DNA of 39,620 nt from Deinococcales bacterium. Lineage in GTDB: Bacteria; Deinococcota; Deinococci; Deinococcales; JAAFIG01. The stretch covers positions 1 through 39,620 of the forward strand of contig JAYWGM010000019.1 of assembly GCA_043778225.1 (NCBI GenBank), written 5' to 3'. The translations under genes were made by a program, and so were the position numbers. Numbering within the stretch: the first letter of the stretch is position 1; the number at the start of each line of letters is the position of its first letter. The notes beneath the pieces were generated by a model. The model was not told the origin of the DNA, did not search any database, and saw only the letters and a program-made list of their open reading frames with translations. Shown piece by piece: positions 1,431 through 14,172 of this stretch.

Positions 1431-2195
1431 TTACGCAAAACTCGAGATACCGCGCTTAGATTCGGCTCGAGCAAATGTAAATAATTGCTGTGCCAGAGGC
1501 TCAGACTCGAGTTCTGAAATTGCCACCAAATCTTTTTTGCGTAATGCCCGAAATGCCTGCGCGATGACCTGCTGCTCATCGCGGCTGTAACCATCTCGAG
1601 CCAGACCAACTTTGTTAATCGTGTAATGTTTGGCTGGGTGTCCGTCTGCCATGCTAAACGGTAAAATATCACGGGTGATTTTGCTCATCATGCCAATAAT
1701 GCTGTGTGACCCAATGCGGCAATACTGATGAATGGCAACCGTCACGCCCATTCGCACATAATCTTCGATGACCACATGACCCGCAATCTGCACCGTATTG
1801 GCAATAATGTTGTGGCTGCCTACCGTGCAATCGTGGGTGATATGAACATACGCCGTGACCAAATTATGATTGCCAACTTTGGTCAGCCCACCGCCAATGG
1901 CAGTACCACGGTGAATCGTGCTGAATTCGCGGATGTCGTTGTCCGAACCAATCTCGAGCCGTGTGTCCTCGCCCTGAAATTTTAAGTCCATTGGCGTGCC
2001 ACCAATCAGCGTGTACTTGCCAATTCGGTTGCGTTCGCCAAGGCTGCTAAAACGCAGCACTTGCGCCCCAGACTCGAGAACACAACCAGCCCCGATGCGT
2101 GTCTGGCTTTCGACAATACAAAACGCTCCGATTATTACGTCCTCGGCAATTTCGGCACTCGGGTCAACAATAGCTGTTGGATGAATCTGCGGCAT
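1431..2195 (-). CDS. lpxA: Acyl-ACP--UDP-N-acetylglucosamine O-acyltransferase
   Basis: IHPTAIVDP start, hexapeptide repeats, DLKFQGE, IREFSTIHRGT, HITHDC; TGATG overlap with fabZ. Confidence 0.93.
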   Translation of the reverse strand: MPQIHPTAIVDPSAEIAEDVIIGAFCIVESQTRIGAGCVLESGAQVLRFSSLGERNRIGKYTLIGGTPMDLKFQGEDTRLEIGSDNDIREFSTIHRGTAIGGGLTKVGNHNLVTAYVHITHDCTVGSHNIIANTVQIAGHVVIEDYVRMGVTVAIHQYCRIGSHSIIGMMSKITRDILPFSMADGHPAKHYTINKVGLARDGYSRDEQQVIAQAFRALRKKDLVAISELESEPLAQQLFTFARAESKRGISSFA

Positions 2196-2626
2196 CAACC
2201 CACCGCAAAAAGAATATCGGCTTGAGAAACCAGAACACCACCGACCGTAATTTTACAATTGGTACGCCCAAGGCTGCGCCTAAAATACTCGAGTTTGGCT
2301 TCGATAATTAACTGGTCGCCCGGCGTGACCGGTTTTTTGAAACGCGCATTCTCGACCCCGGTTAAAAAAGCCAGTTTACCCGGCTCGAGTGCATCCTCGA
2401 GCAGAAAAACCCCAGCCTGTGCCATCGCCTCGAGTTGCAGTACGCCCGGCATGATGGGTCGTCCCGGAAAATGCCCAGCACACCACGGTTCGTTGACCGT
2501 GACATTTTTGAGGCAACGCACAAAGGTAACACCGTTATCGTCTCCACGCTCGAGAACACGGTCAATCATTAAAAACGGGTAGCGATGTGGCAACTTCTCG
2601 AGAATTCCTTCTATAGCTGTAATCAT
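2195..2626 (-). CDS. fabZ: 3-hydroxyacyl-ACP dehydratase
   Basis: LPHRYPFLMIDR, GHFPGRPIMPGVLQLEAMAQ. Confidence 0.96.
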   Translation of the reverse strand: MITAIEGILEKLPHRYPFLMIDRVLERGDDNGVTFVRCLKNVTVNEPWCAGHFPGRPIMPGVLQLEAMAQAGVFLLEDALEPGKLAFLTGVENARFKKPVTPGDQLIIEAKLEYFRRSLGRTNCKITVGGVLVSQADILFAVG

Positions 2627-7445: not shown

Positions 7446-9038
7446 TTAGAACTCGCCGCGTGCGAAGCTCGAGATGATGTTTGGTGCGCTGGTATCAAAG
7501 CCGCAAATGTCAAGCATTCCAGCGTCTTTTGGATCGGCAATGCTAAATTGCGTGGCGGTCATGCCCACCACCACCAGCCGTGCTGCAATGCCCATGGAAT
7601 CACGGTATCGGCGCAAGGCTTCAAAGGGGTGTACCTTACCAAAGTACGTTTCGTTATCGGTGTAAATCACGAATACATCGGCTTGTACGCCTTTCTCGAG
7701 CGCCCAGAGCATTGGTAAAGCACAATCTGTACCACCGAATGATTGGTTTTGAGTCTTCTTGAGTGCAGTCTCGAGAGAATCGCCTGCGCGGATTCCCACG
7801 TCGCGGAAAGTATCCGCAAAGCCCATGATGTGCGAATTCTTTTCGCTGCGAAGGGTGAGCATTGCCATGGCGGTGCTGGCAAGGTTTGGGGTGAGACCGT
7901 TTACGCCAGCGATGTTGCCCCATGTCATTGAACCTGAAATATCCAAGCCCAATACAAAGCGCTTGTTGGCAGGTGTAATCGTACCAAACGAAGTATAGAA
8001 CGCCTTCTCGAGCGCATCCACAATTTGTGATACGACTACCCAAGTACCATCGCCTTTGATGCTGCGTCCGCCTTTGTACACCAGCATGGCTTTTAGAGCA
8101 TCAATTGGATGGATTCGTCCTTTTCGCAAACTTTCGGCATCGGTGACTCGAGCAACAATTTGTCCAATCACATCCCATGCACCCGGCACAAGTACCTCGT
8201 GCTTGCCAAGATTGCCAAGGTTACGCAGTGTCCAAGTCAAACCGTTGTTCTCGAGTGCAGTGCGGTAGACTTTTTCACCTCGAGCTTCAGTGGGAATGGC
8301 TTCAATAGGCAACTTGTATTCGTGCATGATGGCGGCAGCACTCTTATCGGTTTTTGCCTCGAGCGCCAGGATATGACCACGCACCATGTTCAGCGCGGCA
8401 TCCTCAGACTCGAGAACACCATCCACAAGGTACTTGAACAACGCATTTCGGGTCGCGTCGCTGGTCTTTGGGTGCGAGAGGCGCAAAGCATCGGCTTGAG
8501 TCCAACCATCTCGAGACTTGTACTTGACAGCCCAGAGTGCCAGTTTCTCGAGTGGCATATGCTCGTAGATTTTTGCCACGCCGCTACGGGTCAGACGACC
8601 CCAACCGCCGAACAATTGTACAAACTCGAGGAAGTGCAACATATGCGTACCAGTTCGCGCCACTTCAGGCAGGGCATCCCAAGCTGCTTTACGAGTCGCA
8701 GAATCCACCGAGAGCTTCGCCACGGCTGCAAGTGCCACAAGAGTAGGCTCTGGCTTTGGAGCGCGGTTGTAACGTGCTACATCAAGAATAATCTCGAGGG
8801 CAGTAGCACCTTCAAGGGTCGCAAAATCGCGCACGAAATCGGTCTCGAGCTTGGTTTGACGCGCTTCGGTGGTGTAAAATGTACCACCCTCAGTTCCTAA
8901 AATTAAAAATCGGAGGAAACGAGTTGCATCCGAAACCGCGAAGACAAAACCGAGGGTGTTGTTTTGCACTTGGTCGGCTCGAGCCTTGAGAATTTGCGAG
9001 GTGCTATTTGGACGAATTGCATTGATAAGGTGCTTCAT
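7446..9038 (-). CDS. rsr: Ro60/Rsr RNA-binding protein (TROVE + vWA domains)
   Basis: Start MKHLINAI with SD GGAGGG; QVQNNTLGFVF, RFLILGTEGGTFY, KYKSRDGWTQADALRLSHP, DISGSM MIDAS motif, GGTDCALPM, YTDNET, GMLDICGFD. Confidence 0.95.
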   Translation of the reverse strand: MKHLINAIRPNSTSQILKARADQVQNNTLGFVFAVSDATRFLRFLILGTEGGTFYTTEARQTKLETDFVRDFATLEGATALEIILDVARYNRAPKPEPTLVALAAVAKLSVDSATRKAAWDALPEVARTGTHMLHFLEFVQLFGGWGRLTRSGVAKIYEHMPLEKLALWAVKYKSRDGWTQADALRLSHPKTSDATRNALFKYLVDGVLESEDAALNMVRGHILALEAKTDKSAAAIMHEYKLPIEAIPTEARGEKVYRTALENNGLTWTLRNLGNLGKHEVLVPGAWDVIGQIVARVTDAESLRKGRIHPIDALKAMLVYKGGRSIKGDGTWVVVSQIVDALEKAFYTSFGTITPANKRFVLGLDISGSMTWGNIAGVNGLTPNLASTAMAMLTLRSEKNSHIMGFADTFRDVGIRAGDSLETALKKTQNQSFGGTDCALPMLWALEKGVQADVFVIYTDNETYFGKVHPFEALRRYRDSMGIAARLVVVGMTATQFSIADPKDAGMLDICGFDTSAPNIISSFARGEF

Positions 9039-9211: not shown

Positions 9212-9340
9212 TGGTGGAGCGAGTGGGATTTGCACCCACGTCCTGACGATTAGAAGTCGATAACCCTCACGCTTCGGCTCTATAAAGAACAAGGTGTGCA
9301 AAAGGATGTTTTATCCGCTCTACTCCTGAGCTACCGCCCC
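9212..9340 (-). ncRNA. Y RNA (YrlA-related), tRNA-framed or circularly permuted form with CCA end
   Basis: Acceptor GGGGCGG/TCGCTCC-A-CCA, D arm GCTC/GAGC, T arm GTGGG-TGCAAAT-CCCAC; 54-nt insert with Ro helix CTTGTTCT-ttat-AGAGC(C)GAAG. Confidence 0.8.
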
Positions 9341-9352
9341 ACGAAAAAATGT

Positions 9353-9476
9353 TGGAACAGGAGGGAATCGAACCCCCGACCTCCCCTGAGTAGAGGTAAT
9401 CCTCGAGCGACGGCTCAGAAAAAAGCAAAAAATGCTGAGGAATTTTTTTGGCGCTCTACCACTGAGCTACTGTTCC
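9353..9476 (-). ncRNA. Y RNA (YrlA-related), tRNA-framed form, second copy
   Basis: Acceptor GGAACAG/CTGTTCC-A, D arm GCTC-AGTGGTA-GAGC, T arm GGGGG-TTCGATT-CCCTC; insert carries TTGCTT...GAGCCGTCGCTCGAGGATTACC. Confidence 0.75.
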
Positions 9477-9483
9477 ATAAAAA

Positions 9484-9705
9484 TCAAAACTCGAGTTGAA
9501 ACGTACTACCCGCATTTGCATTAGCGTTCTTGACTCGTTTAATCAATTCAGATAAACGCATTGAAACCGCCATTGAAAATACTTGATGCTCCTCACCAGA
9601 GGCTTCTCGAGCAACCGAAACAGGCACACCAGAAATAACGAGCGTCACACCCGTTTTGGTGGTGTAGGTATAATTAATTCTGGTTTCTGGAGCAATCACA
9701 ATCAA
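9484..9705 (-). CDS. Small protein resembling a YgiT/MqsA-type zinc-finger antitoxin domain, but without Cys
   Basis: YTY..G.TLVISGVPVSV...GE..VFS..V..RL pattern; GTGA/TTGA-type overlap with the upstream ORF. Confidence 0.5.
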   Translation of the reverse strand: MIVIAPETRINYTYTTKTGVTLVISGVPVSVAREASGEEHQVFSMAVSMRLSELIKRVKNANANAGSTFQLEF

Positions 9706-9936: not shown

Positions 9937-10019
9937 AGGAATCGGAGGGATTTGAACCCTCGAGACATCAGTCTTCCTTCTTAGCAGGAAGGTGCAATAA
10001 GCCACTCTGCCACGATTCC
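9937..10019 (-). tRNA. tRNA-Ser(GCT)
   Basis: GGAATCG/CGATTCC acceptor, CCTTC-CTGCTAA-GAAGG, long variable arm, TTCAAAT loop; no encoded CCA. Confidence 0.9.
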
Positions 10020-10045
10020 ATAAGGCTCGAGAAAACCTCGAGCTT

Positions 10046-10123
10046 TGGCGTGCCTGACAGGATTTGAACCTGCAACGATACGTGTTGGAGACGTACTCCC
10101 TTAGCCAGTCGGGATTCAGACAC
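10046..10123 (-). tRNA. tRNA-Trp(CCA)
   Basis: GTGTCTG/CAGGCAC-G-CCA, TACGT-CTCCAAC-ACGTA. Confidence 0.88.
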
Positions 10124-10127
10124 AAAA

Positions 10128-10210
10128 AGGAAAGCAAGGGAATCGAACCCTTGAGGCTTTTACGCCCAGCCGTTTTCAAAACGGTGTCCTCGACCCACCG
10201 GACGCTTTCC
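10128..10210 (-). tRNA. tRNA-Ser(TGA), atypical D region
   Basis: GGAAAGC/GCTTTCC, CCGT-TTTGAAA-ACGG, long variable arm, AAGGG-TTCGATT-CCCTT. Confidence 0.8.
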
Positions 10211-10215
10211 ATAAA

Positions 10216-10285
10216 AGACCTCGCTCGGAATTGAACCGAGACTCCTTGGTTTGCAGCCAAAGCCCATGCCGTCTGGCTCGAGATC
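10216..10285 (-). tRNA. tRNA-Cys(GCA)
   Basis: GATCTCG/CGAGGTC with U73, TTTGG-CTGCAAA-CCAAG. Confidence 0.85.
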
Positions 10286-10300
10286 AAAATTTGATATATT

Positions 10301-11191
10301 TTAGAATGGAGGAAGTCCATCAATTCTATCCAGTTCCATTCCTGAAAAACTTTCAAATATAAACCATGCGTCATTTTTGGCAATCAATCGAAATTTAAAT
10401 TGATTGCCAGAGTATCCGCTTTGGGTTCTTATATCTTGAATTATAGAAGAAAAGTTATCATATGCTTCTTGTTGTAAACCACCTAAAAATCGCCCATAAT
10501 GGTCATGTATTTGAAGAGCCTTCATGCTATTTCCTGCTGTGGCATAACCACCACCTGGAGGCATCAAAACTGTCCCATCAGAAAGTTCAACAAATATTGT
10601 CATACCCGCTTTTCGTGCTTGTGTAAAGTGACGTGGCTCTATAAGTTTTGGGAAAACATTTTCAAAAGGTGTTTTAAACCGATCAAAAAGCTCAGACCAA
10701 TTAGAGTAGGCAATCTCGAGCAAATCTCTTTCTCCCCACACGGTTGGATGACTTCTGCCATGTGAACGAACGTCAATGCAATAAATCGTATCTTGGTCAA
10801 CCATACAAAATAAAATTTCTTGCGTTCCTGATTCCGTAAAGTGTAAATGATGTATACCCCAATCAAACAGTATTGGGTCATACTTTTCAGTATCCATAAT
10901 TGAACGACTTTGGTGTGACATTAAATTTTCGCCACGCCCAGATTTTTCTTGCAGTAATTGCAAGTCATTTTGATGTTGGCTTGGACAGGTAAATTCTTTA
11001 GCGTAGACAAACCTACGCGGGGCAATTGGAATTTTTCGTATCTCAGCGTTAAAATACTGGAGTGCTATTTTTTGAGGATCAGTGGCAGCAGAAATACTAT
11101 ATCCTTGGGCTACTAATAACATACCCAAATAAGCTGCCCAATCTTCGTAGAAACTGATTTCCAAGTCAATGCCGTCTATGGTTGTTTTCAT
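10301..11191 (-). CDS. Hypothetical 296-aa protein, AT-rich, possible RelE/YafQ-like ribonuclease core
   Basis: Long ORF inside the tRNA array; DWGIHHLHF...EILFCMVDQDTIYCIDVRSH; function is inference only. Confidence 0.7.
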   Translation of the reverse strand: MKTTIDGIDLEISFYEDWAAYLGMLLVAQGYSISAATDPQKIALQYFNAEIRKIPIAPRRFVYAKEFTCPSQHQNDLQLLQEKSGRGENLMSHQSRSIMDTEKYDPILFDWGIHHLHFTESGTQEILFCMVDQDTIYCIDVRSHGRSHPTVWGERDLLEIAYSNWSELFDRFKTPFENVFPKLIEPRHFTQARKAGMTIFVELSDGTVLMPPGGGYATAGNSMKALQIHDHYGRFLGGLQQEAYDNFSSIIQDIRTQSGYSGNQFKFRLIAKNDAWFIFESFSGMELDRIDGLPPF

Positions 11192-11268
11192 TCCAAATCA
11201 TTTTACTTTATGGTTTTAATTTTTGTACATGACAACTTTAGAATGTAAGAAATTTTTAGGTTGATATA

Positions 11269-11479
11269 TGGAGGAGGCGGGACTCGAACCCGCATATTCG
11301 GCACTGTCGGTTTTAGGAAACCCGCTTCCTGCGGCAAGTTACAAACCCACTCAAGATTCGTCATCTCGAGTCGCCAGCCAGTGCATCCGGAACCTCCGAC
11401 GGTTTTTGACCTGTGCCGCAGCTATTACGCTTACCGAATCCGTAGTTTTGCGGTGCGCGACCGTTTGCGCTACTCCCCC
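11269..11479 (-). ncRNA. 211-nt tRNA-framed structured RNA with a large pseudoknotted insert in the variable-arm position
   Basis: Acceptor GGGGGAG/CTCCTCC-A, D arm GCGC/GCGC, T arm GCGGG-TTCGAGT-CCCGC; nested stems ATTCGGTA/TGCCGAAT and CTGCGGCA/TGCCGCAG. Confidence 0.75.
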
Positions 11480-11482
11480 ATG

Positions 11483-11560
11483 TGGTGTTCCTTCAGGGAC
11501 TCGAACCCAGACTTGTCAGTGTTTTAAGCACTGCGCCTCTACCAATTGGGCTAAAGAAAC
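11483..11560 (-). tRNA. tRNA-Leu(TAA), short variable arm
   Basis: GTTTCTT/AAGGAAC-A-CCA, CAGTG-CTTAAAA-CACTG. Confidence 0.85.
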
Positions 11561-11561
11561 A

Positions 11562-11637
11562 TGGTGCGAATTACGAGAGTCGAACTCGTGTTTCCTGCAT
11601 GGCAAGCAGATGTCGTAAACCACTGGACGAAATTCGC
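11562..11637 (-). tRNA. tRNA-Gly(GCC)
   Basis: GCGAATT/AATTCGC-A-CCA, TCTGC-TTGCCAT-GCAGG. Confidence 0.9.
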
Positions 11638-11639
11638 AT

Positions 11640-11715
11640 TGGTGCGTCTGGTAGGAGTCGAACCTACAGATTCTCGGGTTTGAACCGAGCGAGTTTGCCA
11701 TTCCTCTACAAACGC
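11640..11715 (-). tRNA. tRNA-Leu(CAA), short variable arm
   Basis: GCGTTTG/CAGACGC-A-CCA, CTCGG-TTCAAAC-CCGAG. Confidence 0.88.
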
Positions 11716-11745
11716 ATGATTCTCGAGGAAATTCCCGAGAATTTT

Positions 11746-11821
11746 TGGTACGCCGAGCGGGACTCGAACCCGCAAGCTCCTCGTTCTAAGCGAGGTGAGT
11801 TTACCATTTCTCTATCAGCGC
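11746..11821 (-). tRNA. tRNA-Leu(TAG), short variable arm
   Basis: GCGCTGA/TCGGCGT-A-CCA, CCTCG-CTTAGAA-CGAGG. Confidence 0.9.
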
Positions 11822-11846
11822 ATAGACCCTCGAGACTCGAGGGTTA

Positions 11847-11924
11847 TGGTTTCCAAGGTCAGGATTTGAACCCGTAAATTCTTGTCGCTCAAACAAGTGA
11901 CTTTACCAATTTGTCTACACGGAT
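11847..11924 (-). tRNA. tRNA-Leu(GAG), degenerate (mismatched acceptor and T stems; possible pseudogene)
   Basis: CTTGT-TTGAGCG-ACAAG anticodon arm, TTCAAAT loop, ACCA end; acceptor ATCCGTG/CTTGGAA has 2 mismatches. Confidence 0.65.
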
Positions 11925-11926
11925 AA

Positions 11927-11986
11927 GCTGGTGCAGGTTTCCCATGCGGGTGCTGGTGCAGGTTTCCCATGCGGGTGCTGGTGCAG
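11927..11986. repeat. 25-nt tandem repeat (2.4 copies) duplicating the 3' end (CTGCACCA) of tRNA-Gly(TCC)
   Basis: gctggtgcaggtttcccatgcgggt at 11927 and 11952, partial at 11977. Confidence 0.9.
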
Positions 11987-12054
11987 TTGGCGGGAATCGA
12001 ACCCGCATTCTCTGTTTGGAAGACAGCCATCCTAAGCCGTTGGATGACAACTGC
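11979..12054 (-). tRNA. tRNA-Gly(TCC)
   Basis: GCAGTTG/CAACTGC-A-CCA, CTGT-CTTCCAA-ACAG. Confidence 0.9.
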
Positions 12055-12060
12055 ATAAAG

Positions 12061-12132
12061 CCCTTATTCATGTGGCACAACATAAAGCGGTGTGTGCCAT
12101 TTGCTCCCGCTCGAGCAAATGCAAAATAAGGG
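12061..12132 (-). ncRNA. Putative three-way-junction structured RNA in an array spacer
   Basis: Closing stem CCCTTATT/AATAAGGG enclosing ATTTGCTC/GAGCAAAT and TGGCACA/TGTGCCA. Confidence 0.4.
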
Positions 12133-12157
12133 TGGTGACCCCACGTTGTGCGGGGTT

Positions 12158-12232
12158 TGGAGCAGAAGGACAGGTTTCGCACCTGCGTCTCACCTCGGTT
12201 GAGGTGCATCTTGCTGTTTAGAAGACTTCTGC
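12158..12232 (-). tRNA. Aberrant tRNA-like gene with no canonical anticodon loop
   Basis: Perfect acceptor GCAGAAG/CTTCTGC-T-CCA, T arm GCAGG-TGCGAAA-CCTGT, anticodon arm CACCTC-AACC-GAGGTG. Confidence 0.6.
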
Positions 12233-12233
12233 A

Positions 12234-12309
12234 TGGTGGGTTCTCTCGAATTTGAATCGAGACCTCGACGATTAAAAGTCGTCTGCTCTGCCAGTTGAGC
12301 TAAAAACCC
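12234..12309 (-). tRNA. tRNA-Lys(TTT)
   Basis: GGGTTTT/AGAACCC-A-CCA, GACGA-CTTTTAA-TCGTC. Confidence 0.92.
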
Positions 12310-12334
12310 ATGTGGGGCTGATTAAACCCCATTT

Positions 12335-12410
12335 TGGTGATCTCGAGGAGAATTGAACTCCTGTCTGTCGGGTGAAAACCGCCTATCCTAAACCATTAGA
12401 CGACGAGACC
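12335..12410 (-). tRNA. tRNA-Glu(TTC)
   Basis: GGTCTCG/CGAGATC-A-CCA, CGG-TTTTCAC-CCG. Confidence 0.85.
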
Positions 12411-12413
12411 ATG

Positions 12414-12488
12414 TGGAAGGAAAGTTGGGATTTGAACCCAAAATAACAGCTTCAAAGGCTGTTGAGTTGCCAGTTACTCCACTTTCCT
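12414..12488 (-). tRNA. tRNA-Gln(TTG)
   Basis: AGGAAAG/CTTTCCT-T-CCA, ACAGC-CTTTGAA-GCTGT. Confidence 0.88.
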
Positions 12489-12495
12489 ATTTTGG

Positions 12496-12611
12496 ACTCG
12501 AGCAAGGTTTGTAGCACAGTAAAAAACGACTCGAGAATACCTCGAGTTTACAGGATTTGAACCTGTTCTCCTTTGGGGATTTACCGATAACTGTGTTACT
12601 TCGGCTCGAGC
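12496..12611 (-). ncRNA. Y RNA, YrlA-like topology (Ro stem ends, T arm, loop-closed acceptor-like stem, no D arm)
   Basis: 5' GCTCGAGC(C)GAAG pairs with 3' CTTGCTCGAGT; internal CAGG-TTCAAAT-CCTG and ACTCGAG-GTATT-CTCGAGT. Confidence 0.75.
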
Positions 12612-12617
12612 AAAAAC

Positions 12618-12693
12618 TGGTCGAGAGACTTGGAATTGAACCAAGACTTACTGTGCTTCAGACAATCGTGCAGACCAACTACACCATCTCTCG
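12618..12693 (-). tRNA. tRNA-Phe(GAA)
   Basis: CGAGAGA/TCTCTCG-A-CCA, ATTGT-CTGAAGC-ACAGT. Confidence 0.88.
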
Positions 12694-12696
12694 TTT

Positions 12697-12769
12697 TGGG
12701 TGCGGTGATGGGAGTTGAACCCATCAATCGAGCTTATGAGACTCGAGGCATCACCGGACGCACACCGCA
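12697..12769 (-). tRNA. tRNA with CAT anticodon (Met; subtype not determinable)
   Basis: TGCGGTG/CACCGCA-C-CCA, CGAGT-CTCATAA-GCTCG, reduced D arm. Confidence 0.8.
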
Positions 12770-12776
12770 TTAAAAC

Positions 12777-12850
12777 TGGTCGAAGATGATGGAATCGAAC
12801 CATCGTTGCCTGCATATCAGACAGGTGTCTTACCTTTAGACGAATCTTCG
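12777..12850 (-). tRNA. tRNA-Ile(GAT)
   Basis: CGAAGAT/ATCTTCG-A-CCA, CCTGT-CTGATAT-GCAGG. Confidence 0.9.
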
Positions 12851-12905
12851 TTTCTCCTCGAGTTGTTTGGAGGTAATTCTCGAGGGGTGCGTTTATAAAA
12901 CGCTC

Positions 12906-12981
12906 TGGTCGGCACGGCAAGGGTCGAACTTGCGGCTTCTGCTTTGTAAGAGCAGCACTCATACCACTGAGTTACGCGCCG
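12906..12981 (-). tRNA. tRNA-Val(TAC)
   Basis: CGGCGCG/CGTGCCG-A-CCA, CTGCT-CTTACAA-AGCAG. Confidence 0.9.
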
Positions 12982-13019
12982 TTAAACTCGAGGCGGTCAA
13001 GCGCCGTACTCTCGAGCAT

Positions 13020-13094
13020 TGGTGGAAATGATCGGATTTGAACCGATAACCTTCGCTGTGCAAAAGCGCTGCTCTCCCGTTGAGCTACAATCCC
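13020..13094 (-). tRNA. tRNA-Ala(TGC)
   Basis: GGGATTG/CATTTCC-A-CCA with G3:U70, CGCT-TTTGCAC-AGCG. Confidence 0.88.
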
Positions 13095-13117
13095 ATGTTG
13101 GGAACGGGTGTTCCCTT

Positions 13118-13194
13118 TGGTCGAGCGTGTAAGAATTGAACTTACCTAATGTCCTGTTTCCAAAACAGGAGACCCTCCTTGAGTCTGACGCTCG
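13118..13194 (-). tRNA. tRNA-Pro(TGG)
   Basis: CGAGCGT/ACGCTCG-A-CCA, CCTGT-TTTGGAA-ACAGG. Confidence 0.85.
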
Positions 13195-13199
13195 AGATA

Positions 13200-13273
13200 A
13201 GATTCGGATAGGAATTGAACCTATGACCTTTGGCTTCGCATACCAATGCTCGTTTCCACTGAGCTACCGAATC
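13200..13273 (-). tRNA. tRNA-Arg(GCG)
   Basis: GATTCGG/CCGAATC, TTGGT-ATGCGAA-GCCAA, no encoded CCA. Confidence 0.8.
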
Positions 13274-13287
13274 AAGTGATAGTGCTG

Positions 13288-13364
13288 TGGTGAACCGAGC
13301 AGGACTTGAACCTGCGACTTCCATGTTAGAAGCATGGCACTCTACTCCACTGAGTTATCGGTTC
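13288..13364 (-). tRNA. tRNA-Arg(TCT)
   Basis: GAACCGA/TCGGTTC-A-CCA, CCATG-CTTCTAA-CATGG. Confidence 0.92.
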
Positions 13365-13392
13365 GTGAAACCCATGTATTCACTGGTTCATG

Positions 13393-13468
13393 TGGTGAAT
13401 CGGGCAGGACTCGAACCTGCAACTTCCACGTTCGAAGCGTGGCACTCTGTCCTTTGAGTTACCGATTC
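13393..13468 (-). tRNA. tRNA-Arg(TCG)
   Basis: GAATCGG/CCGATTC-A-CCA, CCACG-CTTCGAA-CGTGG. Confidence 0.92.
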
Positions 13469-13474
13469 ATGATG

Positions 13475-13535
13475 CTCGAGCAAGTGAGTACAGCACGACA
13501 ATATTTTCAAGATAATCGTGTTGCTTCGGCTCGAG
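13475..13535 (-). ncRNA. Minimal Y RNA (Ro-binding hairpin only, ~61 nt)
   Basis: CTCGAGC(C)GAAG...CACGATTATC...GTCGTG...CACTTGCTCGAG. Confidence 0.75.
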
Positions 13536-13541
13536 ATGGGT

Positions 13542-13612
13542 ACTGCAAACAAGTGGATTCTTGAGGCGTTTTAATCTGGGAAAGAGATAAGCCTCGAGAT
13601 TCGGCTCGCAGT
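13542..13612 (-). ncRNA. Minimal Y RNA (Ro-binding hairpin only, ~71 nt)
   Basis: ACTGCGAGC(C)GAA-TCTCGAGGC-TTATC...GCCTCAAGA...CACTTGTTTGCAGT. Confidence 0.75.
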
Positions 13613-13616
13613 TATA

Positions 13617-13691
13617 TGGCGGTTCTAACGGGAATCGAACCCGTATTGCCTGAGAGACAGTCAAGCATCGTAGCCGTTGGAACATAGAACC
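13617..13691 (-). tRNA. tRNA-Asp(GTC)
   Basis: GGTTCTA/TAGAACC-G-CCA, CTTGA-CTGTCTC-TCAGG. Confidence 0.88.
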
Positions 13692-13717
13692 ATTTCATGG
13701 TGTCAAACACAGACCTA

Positions 13718-13792
13718 TGGCTGACTCGGTAGGGATCGAACCTACGACATCCTGATTAACAGTCAGGCGCTCTACCTCTAAGCTACAAGTCA
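13718..13792 (-). tRNA. tRNA-Asn(GTT)
   Basis: TGACTTG/CGAGTCA-G-CCA, CCTGA-CTGTTAA-TCAGG. Confidence 0.92.
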
Positions 13793-13796
13793 AAAC

Positions 13797-13880
13797 TGGT
13801 GGATAGAGAGGGATTTGAACCCCCAGTGTTTTTCAACGTCTGATCTACAGTCAGGTGCAATACCATTATGCGATCTACCC
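13797..13880 (-). tRNA. tRNA-Tyr(GTA)
   Basis: GGGTAGA/TCTATCC-A-CCA, CTGA-CTGTAGA-TCAG, long variable arm. Confidence 0.9.
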
Positions 13881-14096
13881 TTAATTTGCTCGAGAGTTGT
13901 ACGCCCCTGAGCGTGTTCGCCTCAAGAATAATCGTGATGCGCCGCACAGCACATAAATTCACGTTTTCTTGAAGAAGAAAAATTTGGCATTCGAGTTGTC
14001 AAAGTATACGCTCGAGAACGAGTTCTAGTCGTCGCAAGCAGTTTGGGTGCATTTTTAGCTTCTCGAGGACACGAATTCTCGAGTTGCGTACACCTG

Positions 14097-14172
14097 TGGG
14101 TTCATCGTCGGGAATCGCACCCGAGTTTCTAGGGTCACAACCTAGCGTCTTGTCTACTGGACGACAACGAAC
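14097..14172 (-). tRNA. tRNA-His(GTG)
   Basis: G-1:C73, TTCGTTG/CGATGAA, CTAGG-TTGTGAC-CCTAG, CCA. Confidence 0.9.

Follow-up and report, generated by a model that had tools for sequence, protein, structure and literature searches.

The window analyzed here, the whole stretch of 39,620 nt, is an entire 39.6-kb contig of a 4.03-Mb Deinococcales genome assembly, and our subject is a 211-nt tRNA-shaped RNA gene on its reverse strand (11269–11479, from G1 to the discriminator A), delineated from its sequence and from full-length homologues in nine related genomes. The gene is single copy in the genome and lies within an array of 26 co-oriented tRNA genes called by ARAGORN (9937–14171, reverse strand), where it starts 3 nt past the encoded CCA of a tRNA-Leu(UAA). 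Another 42 tRNA genes are found elsewhere in the genome. Since 22 of the 26 array anticodons are also encoded outside the array, we regard the array as an accessory second tRNA set. The contig also carries ordinary bacterial genes, including lpxA-like, fabZ, ribonucleotide reductase, and hisA genes, and 2.2 kb downstream of the RNA gene lies rsr (7446–9038, reverse strand), which encodes a Ro60 orthologue with TROVE and vWA_Ro60 domains (Pfam). The comparisons described below indicate that the element is a real, conserved, tRNA-shaped non-coding RNA.

Read from G1 (all parts of the RNA are on the reverse strand), the molecule begins with the 5′ strand of an acceptor stem (RNA positions 1–7; 11473–11479) that pairs perfectly, at 7 of 7 positions, with positions 204–210 (11270–11276). 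This 3′ strand and the discriminator A at position 211 occupy 11269–11276; the stem contains a G3:U70 pair, and no CCA is encoded after it. U8 and A14 are present, as is a D arm (10–25; 11455–11470) with the 4-bp stem GCGC/GCGC and a loop containing A14, G18, and G19. The D stem covaries, with GCGC/GCGC, GCUC/GAGC, GGGC/GCCC, and GGCC/GGCC all found among homologues. The A15-U48 position is kept, and the T arm (187–203; 11277–11293), evident both in the sequence and in homologues, has a UUCGA loop (UUCGAGU in full). A first-pass annotation, made from the letters of the window, had reported this tRNA frame with its G3:U70 and A73 and had noted that the D stem sets the RNA apart from tmRNA; both observations were borne out.

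Standard tools do not recognize the molecule. ARAGORN calls neither a tRNA nor a tmRNA at the locus, and Rfam 15 gives no match at gathering level. With the threshold relaxed to E ≤ 10, a single same-strand Rfam match overlaps the tRNA frame: the tmRNA model aligns with 17 nt of the T arm, at 11.7 bits (cut-off 47). Compared with the tRNA family (RF00005), the RNA has the 7-bp acceptor, the D arm with G18 and G19, and the T arm with its UUCGA loop, but lacks a cloverleaf that tRNA models recognize and a 7-nt anticodon loop with U33 and an anticodon.

Searches with blastn and profile models uncovered homologues in other tRNA arrays, where the first-pass annotation had proposed to look. Nine other genomes of the window's Deinococcales family contain full-length copies with 75–98% identity, and a further full-length copy is present in the cultured Calidithermus chliarophilus DSM 9957. 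A model, R1, built from a 10-copy MAFFT alignment, detected a single copy per genome in 10 of the 19 members of the window's family (6 of the 7 high-quality genomes among them); it also found the RNA in 15 of 151 genomes sampled from the order and in 13 of 111 from a sister genus. At the loci retrieved from the window's family and Calidithermus, the RNA is surrounded by arrays that each contain 8–29 tRNA genes. Sister-genus copies stand alone, without any tRNA gene closer than 1.5 kb, and adjoin purL-purF in two genomes examined. One sister-genus copy (L180, in genome G172 at 1437–1633) has a degenerate T loop, a broken acceptor stem, and TCA in place of CCA; it scores 37.6 bits with R1 and, judged by these defects, is probably a pseudogene.

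The family extends to phages. A sister-genus copy matched Ralstonia phage RSP15 (Ackermannviridae) by blastn (33% of the query, 79.7% identity, E 2e-6); the matching RNA, which has the same core and a full tRNA frame of ~220 nt, lies in an unannotated gap at the edge of the phage tRNA cluster. Motif scans of viral contigs yielded 18 + 41 loci. When 13 of these 59 loci had been removed by script for want of a TTCRA T arm, together with 11 duplicates, 35 distinct viral copies remained. Six of the 13 dropped loci were clear chance matches on inspection (L183, L184, L186, L190, L194, and L197), and the others were dropped by the T-arm script alone (L204, L207, L208, L209, L214, L222, and L229). 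For three of the 35 copies kept (L192, L210, and L223), the 5′ end placed by the script is doubtful, with 6 of 7 acceptor pairs formed. The viral copies are 128–283 nt long, on contigs of up to 452 kb, and 31 of the 35 have tRNA genes within 1.5 kb. Another copy is found in an uncultured 735-kb phage record. We collected 60 distinct homologues: 10 from the window's family, one from Calidithermus, 13 from the sister genus, one from another family, and 35 from viral contigs.

We built a second model, R2, from 28 viral cores alone, with no Deinococcales sequence. It matched the window's RNA with 40.7 bits (E 2.6e-9), its sole match in the window and in the whole genome (G000). The R2 matches taken together are independent evidence that all of these RNAs are one family. 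R2 scores were 50–64 bits for sister-genus copies (16.5 for the degenerate L180), 39.5 for Calidithermus, and 26–41 for a short phage type; within the order, R2 detected 15 of 151 genomes, one of them in a further family. The universal core modeled by R2 (the P2–P6 region; 11312–11397 in the window) has two near-invariant strands, GGAUGCAC and GGAAGCG. We define the family by these strands, held by helices P3 and P4, by the tRNA frame, and by an A-rich loop that pairs with a U-rich strand, all of which the window's RNA possesses. Phage tRNA clusters are the main home of the family.

Other searches gave no further members. There was no blastn match for the window's RNA among INPHARED phages, for the sister-genus copy among plasmids, or for the viral copy L237 among phages. 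An 18-nt motif representing the window's type, run against metagenomes, gave no real copy among the at least 120 loci listed (best, 17.1 bits with E 0.23 and 12.5 bits with E 0.8), and the same motif hit two loci in viral contigs, neither real. At 20 viral loci, Rfam at gathering level identified 121 tRNAs and one tmRNA but left the new RNA uncovered. We found no description of the family in the literature searched. The first-pass proposal of an undescribed class stands as far as it was tested, with Rfam 15 silent at gathering level for the window and 20 viral copies. The family may already appear, without a name, among the 10,006 candidate viral structured RNAs catalogued in PMC10690425.

Folded as a single sequence, the RNA reaches −82.9 kcal/mol (z = −2.17), a value equaled by 2 of 200 shuffles and thus only mildly above chance. 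We therefore tested the structure by comparison with homologues. In a MAFFT-only alignment of 10 cores, 98.7% of cells were paired and 14 of 38 pairs changed on both sides, a value reached by none of 500 shuffles; controls in which the strands were slid were 33–46% paired. When 24 Deinococcales copies were aligned to R1, 93.5% of cells were paired and 22 of 38 pairs changed on both sides, again with 0 of 500 shuffles reaching the value (slid controls, 37–44% paired). The covarying fold indicated by these sequences is an anticodon-like hairpin and a small hairpin, followed by a rod of six helices (P1–P6) in the variable region. The order is acceptor, D arm, anticodon-like hairpin, hairpin B, P1, hairpin C, P2a, P2b, P3, P4, P5, a 12-nt conserved bulge, the P6 hairpin, a 5-nt linker ending in U48, and the T arm. 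The rod is ~125 nt long, contains near-invariant internal loops, and stands in place of the variable region.

The anticodon-like hairpin (27–46; 11434–11453) has a stem, 27–30/43–46, whose fourth pair covaries (C-G, A-U, or G-C), and an A-rich loop of 12–14 nt rather than a 7-nt anticodon loop. Across family copies the loop is 8–14 nt; its consensus in phage copies, AAAACGGA, is the same whatever the acceptor stem. Hairpin B (49–60; 11420–11431), with stems that read by eye as AGC/GCU, AGCC/GGCU, AAC/GUU, or ACC/GGU, is often capped in relatives by a GNRA loop. P1 closes the large domain (62–67 with 176–181; 11413–11418 with 11299–11304) and has both-side changes at five of its six pairs; its 3′ strand is followed by the 5-nt variable-loop-like linker. 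Hairpin C (69–79; 11401–11411) has an inner pair that is U-A, U.G, or C-G and in the sister genus is a 4-bp stem with a GNRA loop. P6, the terminal hairpin (109–131; 11349–11371), is formed by ACTCGAGAT/ATCTTGAGT, with changes on both sides at 5 of 8 pairs, and includes a CTCGAG site. One copy, L007 of genome G014, has an extra 33 nt at ~1684–1716, just ahead of the P1 3′ strand; this insert includes a small hairpin that also contains CTCGAG. By eye, neither a K-turn nor a loop-E motif fits the P3/P4 internal loop.

Most of the inner helices first drawn for the window do not survive this comparison. The third hairpin of that drawing is P6 and is retained. The proposed anticodon stem CCG/CGG (27–29/38–40) can form in the window's copy only; the conserved partner is a distal CGG. 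Of the two nested helices proposed to enclose the domain, CTGCGGCA/TGCCGCAG has 86.7% of cells paired, but its 3′ strand is almost invariant while the partner varies, and it breaks in divergent copies. The halves of the other, ATTCGGTA/TGCCGAAT, belong to two separate covarying helices, the anticodon-like hairpin (27–30/43–46) and P1 (62–67/176–181). The AACC/GGTT and CCGG/CTGG hairpins clash with the covarying hairpin C, P2b, P3, and P4. The pairing of GTCGG with CCGAC, read initially as a pseudoknot, is real (both-side changes at 5 of 5 pairs, 100% of cells paired), but it is a nested helix, P2a.

The domain nevertheless appears to be pseudoknotted, as first claimed, through different strands. 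The anticodon-like loop is complementary to a U-rich strand that comes right after the invariant GGAAGCG. In the window's copy, AAACU in the loop (32–36; 11444–11448) can form 5 bp with GGUUU (158–162; 11318–11322), between P3 and P2b. All 24 Deinococcales copies retain the central C:G pair of this helix, one of them (genome G010) through a double change to G:C. Of 57 copies, 53 have a best loop/strand helix of 4 bp or more and 38 one of 5 bp or more. The script behind these counts found no hairpin in L176 and L192, and in L210, L211, L212, and L223 it set the loop or the U-rich strand in the wrong place. For 41 distinct loop/strand types, own pairs averaged 4.71 bp and swapped pairs 4.31 bp, and none of 2000 permutations reached the value for own pairs. 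Compensatory variants occur in G010, RSP15, L199, L191, L228, and L215. These data support a pseudoknot between the anticodon-like loop and the U-rich strand of the rod, which would lock the "anticodon" away. Tied in this way to the variable-arm domain, the "anticodon" could not read codons. Base triples might also form with two U's of the opposite strand.

We also compared the acceptor ends. G3:U70 is present in 20 of 24 Deinococcales copies and 10 of 35 viral copies (30 of 59 together), A73 in 21 of 24 and 27 of 35, and CCA directly after the discriminator in 19 of 24 and 8 of 35. At 3:70, the viral copies have G.U (10), C-G (10), G-C (8), or other combinations (7). The acceptor stem covaries across the family: in 32 of the 35, all seven of its pairs form despite very divergent sequences. 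The alanine identity proposed in the first-pass annotation is therefore plausible in Deinococcales but not family-wide, and the RNA of the window's lineage is probably alanine-accepting, as judged from these identity elements. The window's copy and that of genome G007 lack an encoded CCA because an insertion of ~1 kb begins directly after the discriminator. The window's insertion (10286–11268), which displaces the CCA, holds an open reading frame (ORF) of 296 aa (10301–11191, reverse strand) with no Pfam or PHROGs match; the insertion in G007 is ~1.1 kb, lies at the equivalent point, and is unrelated.

In 4 of 4 metatranscriptome runs examined, from four studies, contigs of 151–173 nt covered positions within 11277–11436 with no splice joint; such contigs show presence in RNA libraries, not ends, levels, or transcription, and may reflect DNA carry-over. 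In these runs, 11100–11267 and most of 11437–11573 had no cover, which is not evidence, since these are contigs. A GC-rich inverted repeat follows the CCA of a stand-alone copy; we do not claim it as a terminator.

The explanation that we favor, with modest confidence, is that the gene encodes a stable, non-coding, tRNA-shaped RNA of a family named in no library searched: a processed, non-decoding tRNA mimic that is charged with alanine in the window's lineage. The RNA would be co-transcribed with the flanking tRNAs and cut out by RNase P and 3′ processing enzymes to end in CCA. In the window's lineage, and in the half of the family with G3:U70, this pair together with A73 would allow charging with alanine by alanyl-tRNA synthetase. 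Unable to decode codons, the mimic would use its conserved pseudoknotted domain to bind some widely conserved partner, most likely a component of the translation machinery. Throughout the host groups seen, the ~70-nt core has a similar sequence, which points to a partner common to all these hosts. Three features lead us to favor the translation apparatus: the constant retention of the acceptor/T minihelix, the strong enrichment of G3:U70, and the likeness of core sequences from very different hosts. The family may have spread to Deinococcales chromosomes with accessory tRNA arrays or as a stand-alone gene.

Several points weigh against this explanation. We infer the ends, the CCA, the charging, and the partner from sequence, and nothing links the RNA to the ribosome. 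G3:U70 is absent from 29 of 59 copies, so alanylation cannot be the common denominator of the family; copies without it include G008, G010, and Calidithermus, within the window's own array-borne clade. No CCA is encoded in the window's copy or in 27 of 35 viral copies. The short phage type (157–167 nt) has no D arm, and thus the full tRNA frame is not universal. A consensus scan at one stand-alone copy found no promoter or terminator, and no neighboring protein is common to the viral loci (41 ORFs compared with PHROGs gave only HNH endonucleases and unnamed families). The 24-copy alignment was fitted to R1 and favors that fold, so its figures flatter it, although the MAFFT-only alignment points the same way. 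Finally, significance by the shuffle and permutation controls is overstated, because the sequences share ancestry.

One alternative, which we judge unlikely, is that the tRNA frame is a mere scaffold for processing or stability and that the domain is unrelated to tRNA biology, acting as an aptamer, a ribozyme, or a protein sponge. It would account for the finding that the core strands and the loop, rather than acceptor identity, are the most conserved parts, and that the short phage type drops the D arm and keeps the core. GNRA terminal loops on hairpins B, C, and P6 in many copies also suggest a compact tertiary fold. However, every copy examined keeps the acceptor/T minihelix, with its 7-bp stem and mostly A as discriminator, and G3:U70 is far commoner than neutrality at a helix position would predict. 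In Rfam, neither self-cleaving ribozymes nor riboswitches gave a match to the RNA.

The locked loop invites another idea. Phage tRNAs have been proposed to counter tRNA-cleaving defenses, and an RNA whose anticodon-like loop is sequestered in a pseudoknot, and which has no cleavable loop as a result, might serve as a decoy or inhibitor of tRNA-targeting nucleases, whether host anticodon nucleases or toxins. The company of tRNA genes around 31 of 35 viral copies, and the place of the window's copy in an accessory second tRNA set, agree with such a role. A decoy, however, would need neither the enrichment of G3:U70 (30 of 59 copies) nor a 70-nt core conserved in sequence across hosts as distant as Ralstonia and Deinococcus, and the stand-alone chromosomal copies at the same purL-purF site in two sister-genus genomes look like a cellular gene. 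We consider a decoy rather improbable.

Equally improbable, in our estimate, is a more active role for the mimic, in which it would enter a ribosomal site without mRNA or SmpB and deliver alanine or another residue to stalled or vacant ribosomes. Such entry by a "self-decoding" aminoacyl-tRNA mimic is conceivable because the partner strand of the anticodon-like loop is part of the RNA itself. If true, the RNA would be a protein-free analogue of tmRNA-SmpB with which large phages rescue, reprogram, or silence host ribosomes, and which some Deinococcales have kept.

The proximity of rsr raises the possibility that the RNA is a Y-RNA-like partner of Rsr, with the rod carrying the Ro60 binding site and a tRNA-like module as in YrlA or Yrn1. 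In the window, rsr is on the same strand, 2.2 kb downstream; it is 1–3.5 kb from the RNA in 7 of 11 array-bearing genomes. D. radiodurans has several small tRNA-like RNAs and a tRNA upstream of rsr, co-transcribed, according to the part of PMC4201824 available to us, and P5 (GGCGA with UUGCC) resembles by eye the conserved Ro-binding helix given in that part. However, sister-genus and phage copies do not conserve the P5 sequence, no match to YrlA or Y_RNA appears at E ≤ 10, and the GNCGAAN0-1G motif is absent save for a non-conserved near-match in the P6 loop. Rsr was detected in only one of five sister-genus carriers, as a 220-aa TROVE fragment, and vWA_Ro60 in none of the five; with the query used, no Rsr was found in Calidithermus either, although P5 is identical there. 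As Rsr was not found in four of five sister-genus carriers or in Calidithermus, the RNA is independent of Ro60. Two RNAs immediately upstream of rsr are better candidates for Y RNAs. We conclude that rsr is a neighbor within the window's family only and no conserved partner of the RNA, and that a Y-RNA-like role is very unlikely.

That the gene is an ordinary tRNA gene with an intron-like insertion removed to yield a decoding tRNA is scarcely credible: tRNA-Thr is absent from the window's array, the insert is in the anticodon/variable region, and two other interrupted tRNA-like genes are nearby, but relatives' arrays have both tRNA-Thr and the RNA, the flanks cannot build a 7-nt anticodon loop, the anticodon-like loop stays constant whatever the acceptor stem, the RNA-library contigs cross the domain unspliced with no joints seen, and, as the first-pass annotation had already argued, the insert is too small for a group I intron, with no intron family at Rfam E ≤ 10.

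Other features of the locus deserve mention. Directly upstream of rsr are two tRNA-framed RNAs with inserts of ~50–65 nt (9353–9476 and 9212–9340, both on the reverse strand), each conserved at this position in relatives. A tRNA model matches the first at 50.4 bits, with 65 nt inserted. In the second we noted G3:U70, a terminal ACCA, and the word GCCGAAG, which agrees with the Ro-binding motif in the literature. The region 9317–9522 also gives weak matches to YrlA (25.0 and 22.3 bits; cut-off, 69). In the array, the genes that ARAGORN labels tRNA-Leu (UAA, CAA, UAG, and GAG; 11483–11923, reverse strand) are only 73–78 nt and lack the long variable arm of bacterial tRNA-Leu, whereas the dispersed tRNA-Leu genes of the genome are 82–87 nt. 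Outside the window, a tRNA that ARAGORN calls at contig C28:46067–46151 (reverse strand) of the same genome is 85 nt long, with four letters in its anticodon (ggtc) and no assigned type. The palindrome CTCGAG occurs 256 times in the 39.6 kb (5.8 ± 2.2 expected from shuffles), inside genes, in tRNA spacers, and in the P6 hairpin, and is a highly iterated palindrome of the window's Deinococcales lineage. The lpxA-like gene (hexapeptide and Acetyltransf_11 domains) and fabZ are adjacent at 1431–2626 (reverse strand). Cultured Deinococcus species are not known to have lipid A, so lipid A genes would be unexpected in this lineage.

tRNA mimics with known roles are few (tmRNA, Y RNAs, and viral 3′ tRNA-like ends), and each opened a field. 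The present family has at least 60 distinct members, from chromosomes of the Deinococcus group to phages with genomes of hundreds of kilobases, and accounts for some of the annotation-empty gaps in phage tRNA clusters, such as that of Ralstonia phage RSP15. R1 and R2 define the family for database-wide searches, and a cultured carrier exists.

Among known RNAs, tmRNA (SsrA; RF00023) shares a tRNA-Ala-like acceptor/T minihelix with G3:U70, A73, and CCA, and the T arm of the new RNA is identical to the Rfam tmRNA consensus over 17 nt. In both, a large pseudoknotted domain replaces a decoding anticodon, and tmRNA also occurs in phage tRNA clusters; one viral array (L196) contains both a canonical tmRNA and the new RNA. 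However, the new RNA has a true D stem and an anticodon-like hairpin, is ~160–280 nt long against 372 nt for the tmRNA of the genome, and lacks G3:U70 in half of the family. It falls short of the tmRNA gathering score (11.7 bits against 47) and has no tag frame with a resume codon and conserved stop: in alignments read by eye, there is no conserved reading frame or stop codon, and frames differ in length and stop between close relatives. The genome has its own canonical 372-nt tmRNA on contig C49, whose best match to the new RNA is a 10-mer (E 0.057), besides exact words of 7–9 nt that include the T loop. We therefore rejected tmRNA as its identity. SRP RNA was likewise rejected; that of the genome is on contig C101. 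Nor does the RNA qualify as a group I intron in a tRNA gene (RF00028): no intron core is recognized by model, and the flanks cannot be assembled to a normal tRNA.

Class II tRNAs (Leu, Ser, Tyr, and Sec) also have an extra domain between the anticodon and T arms, and some phage copies have, by eye, a 3-bp class-II-like D stem. The variable arm of the new RNA, however, is 100–200 nt rather than 10–25 nt, the conserved loop is not an anticodon loop, and there is no tRNA call by ARAGORN or Rfam. In T-box leaders bound to tRNA and in anticodon-codon mimicry of the internal ribosome entry site PKI type, an RNA strand pairs with a tRNA anticodon loop; in the new RNA the strand would be supplied in cis. 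There is no accompanying similarity in sequence or model. Y RNAs (YrlA, RF02553; D. radiodurans Yrn1) resemble the family as tRNA-mimicking non-coding RNAs encoded near rsr, and the part of PMC4201824 available to us describes Y RNAs that can share a transcript with tRNAs and that, in one species, are processed by RNase P and receive a CCA. In YrlA, the RNA ends form the Ro-binding stem, which replaces the anticodon arm, whereas the ends of the new RNA form the acceptor stem. The new RNA matches neither Y RNA model (RF02553, RF00019), forms no Ro60-binding stem from its own ends, and occurs in several carriers in which no Rsr gene was found.

The species 1 and species 2 RNAs of phage T4 (rnaC and rnaD) are small stable RNAs annotated inside a phage tRNA cluster. 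They are 139 and 119 nt long and lack the conserved core strands, and we rejected kinship: with filters off, R1 reached at best 6.0 bits (E 2.5) in the T4 genome (L200), with no match over rnaC or rnaD, and R2 had no match there. T4 rnaC (L200, 2909–3047) has a canonical tRNA-type T arm near its 3′ end. Together, rnaC and rnaD are the nearest precedent in kind for the new family.

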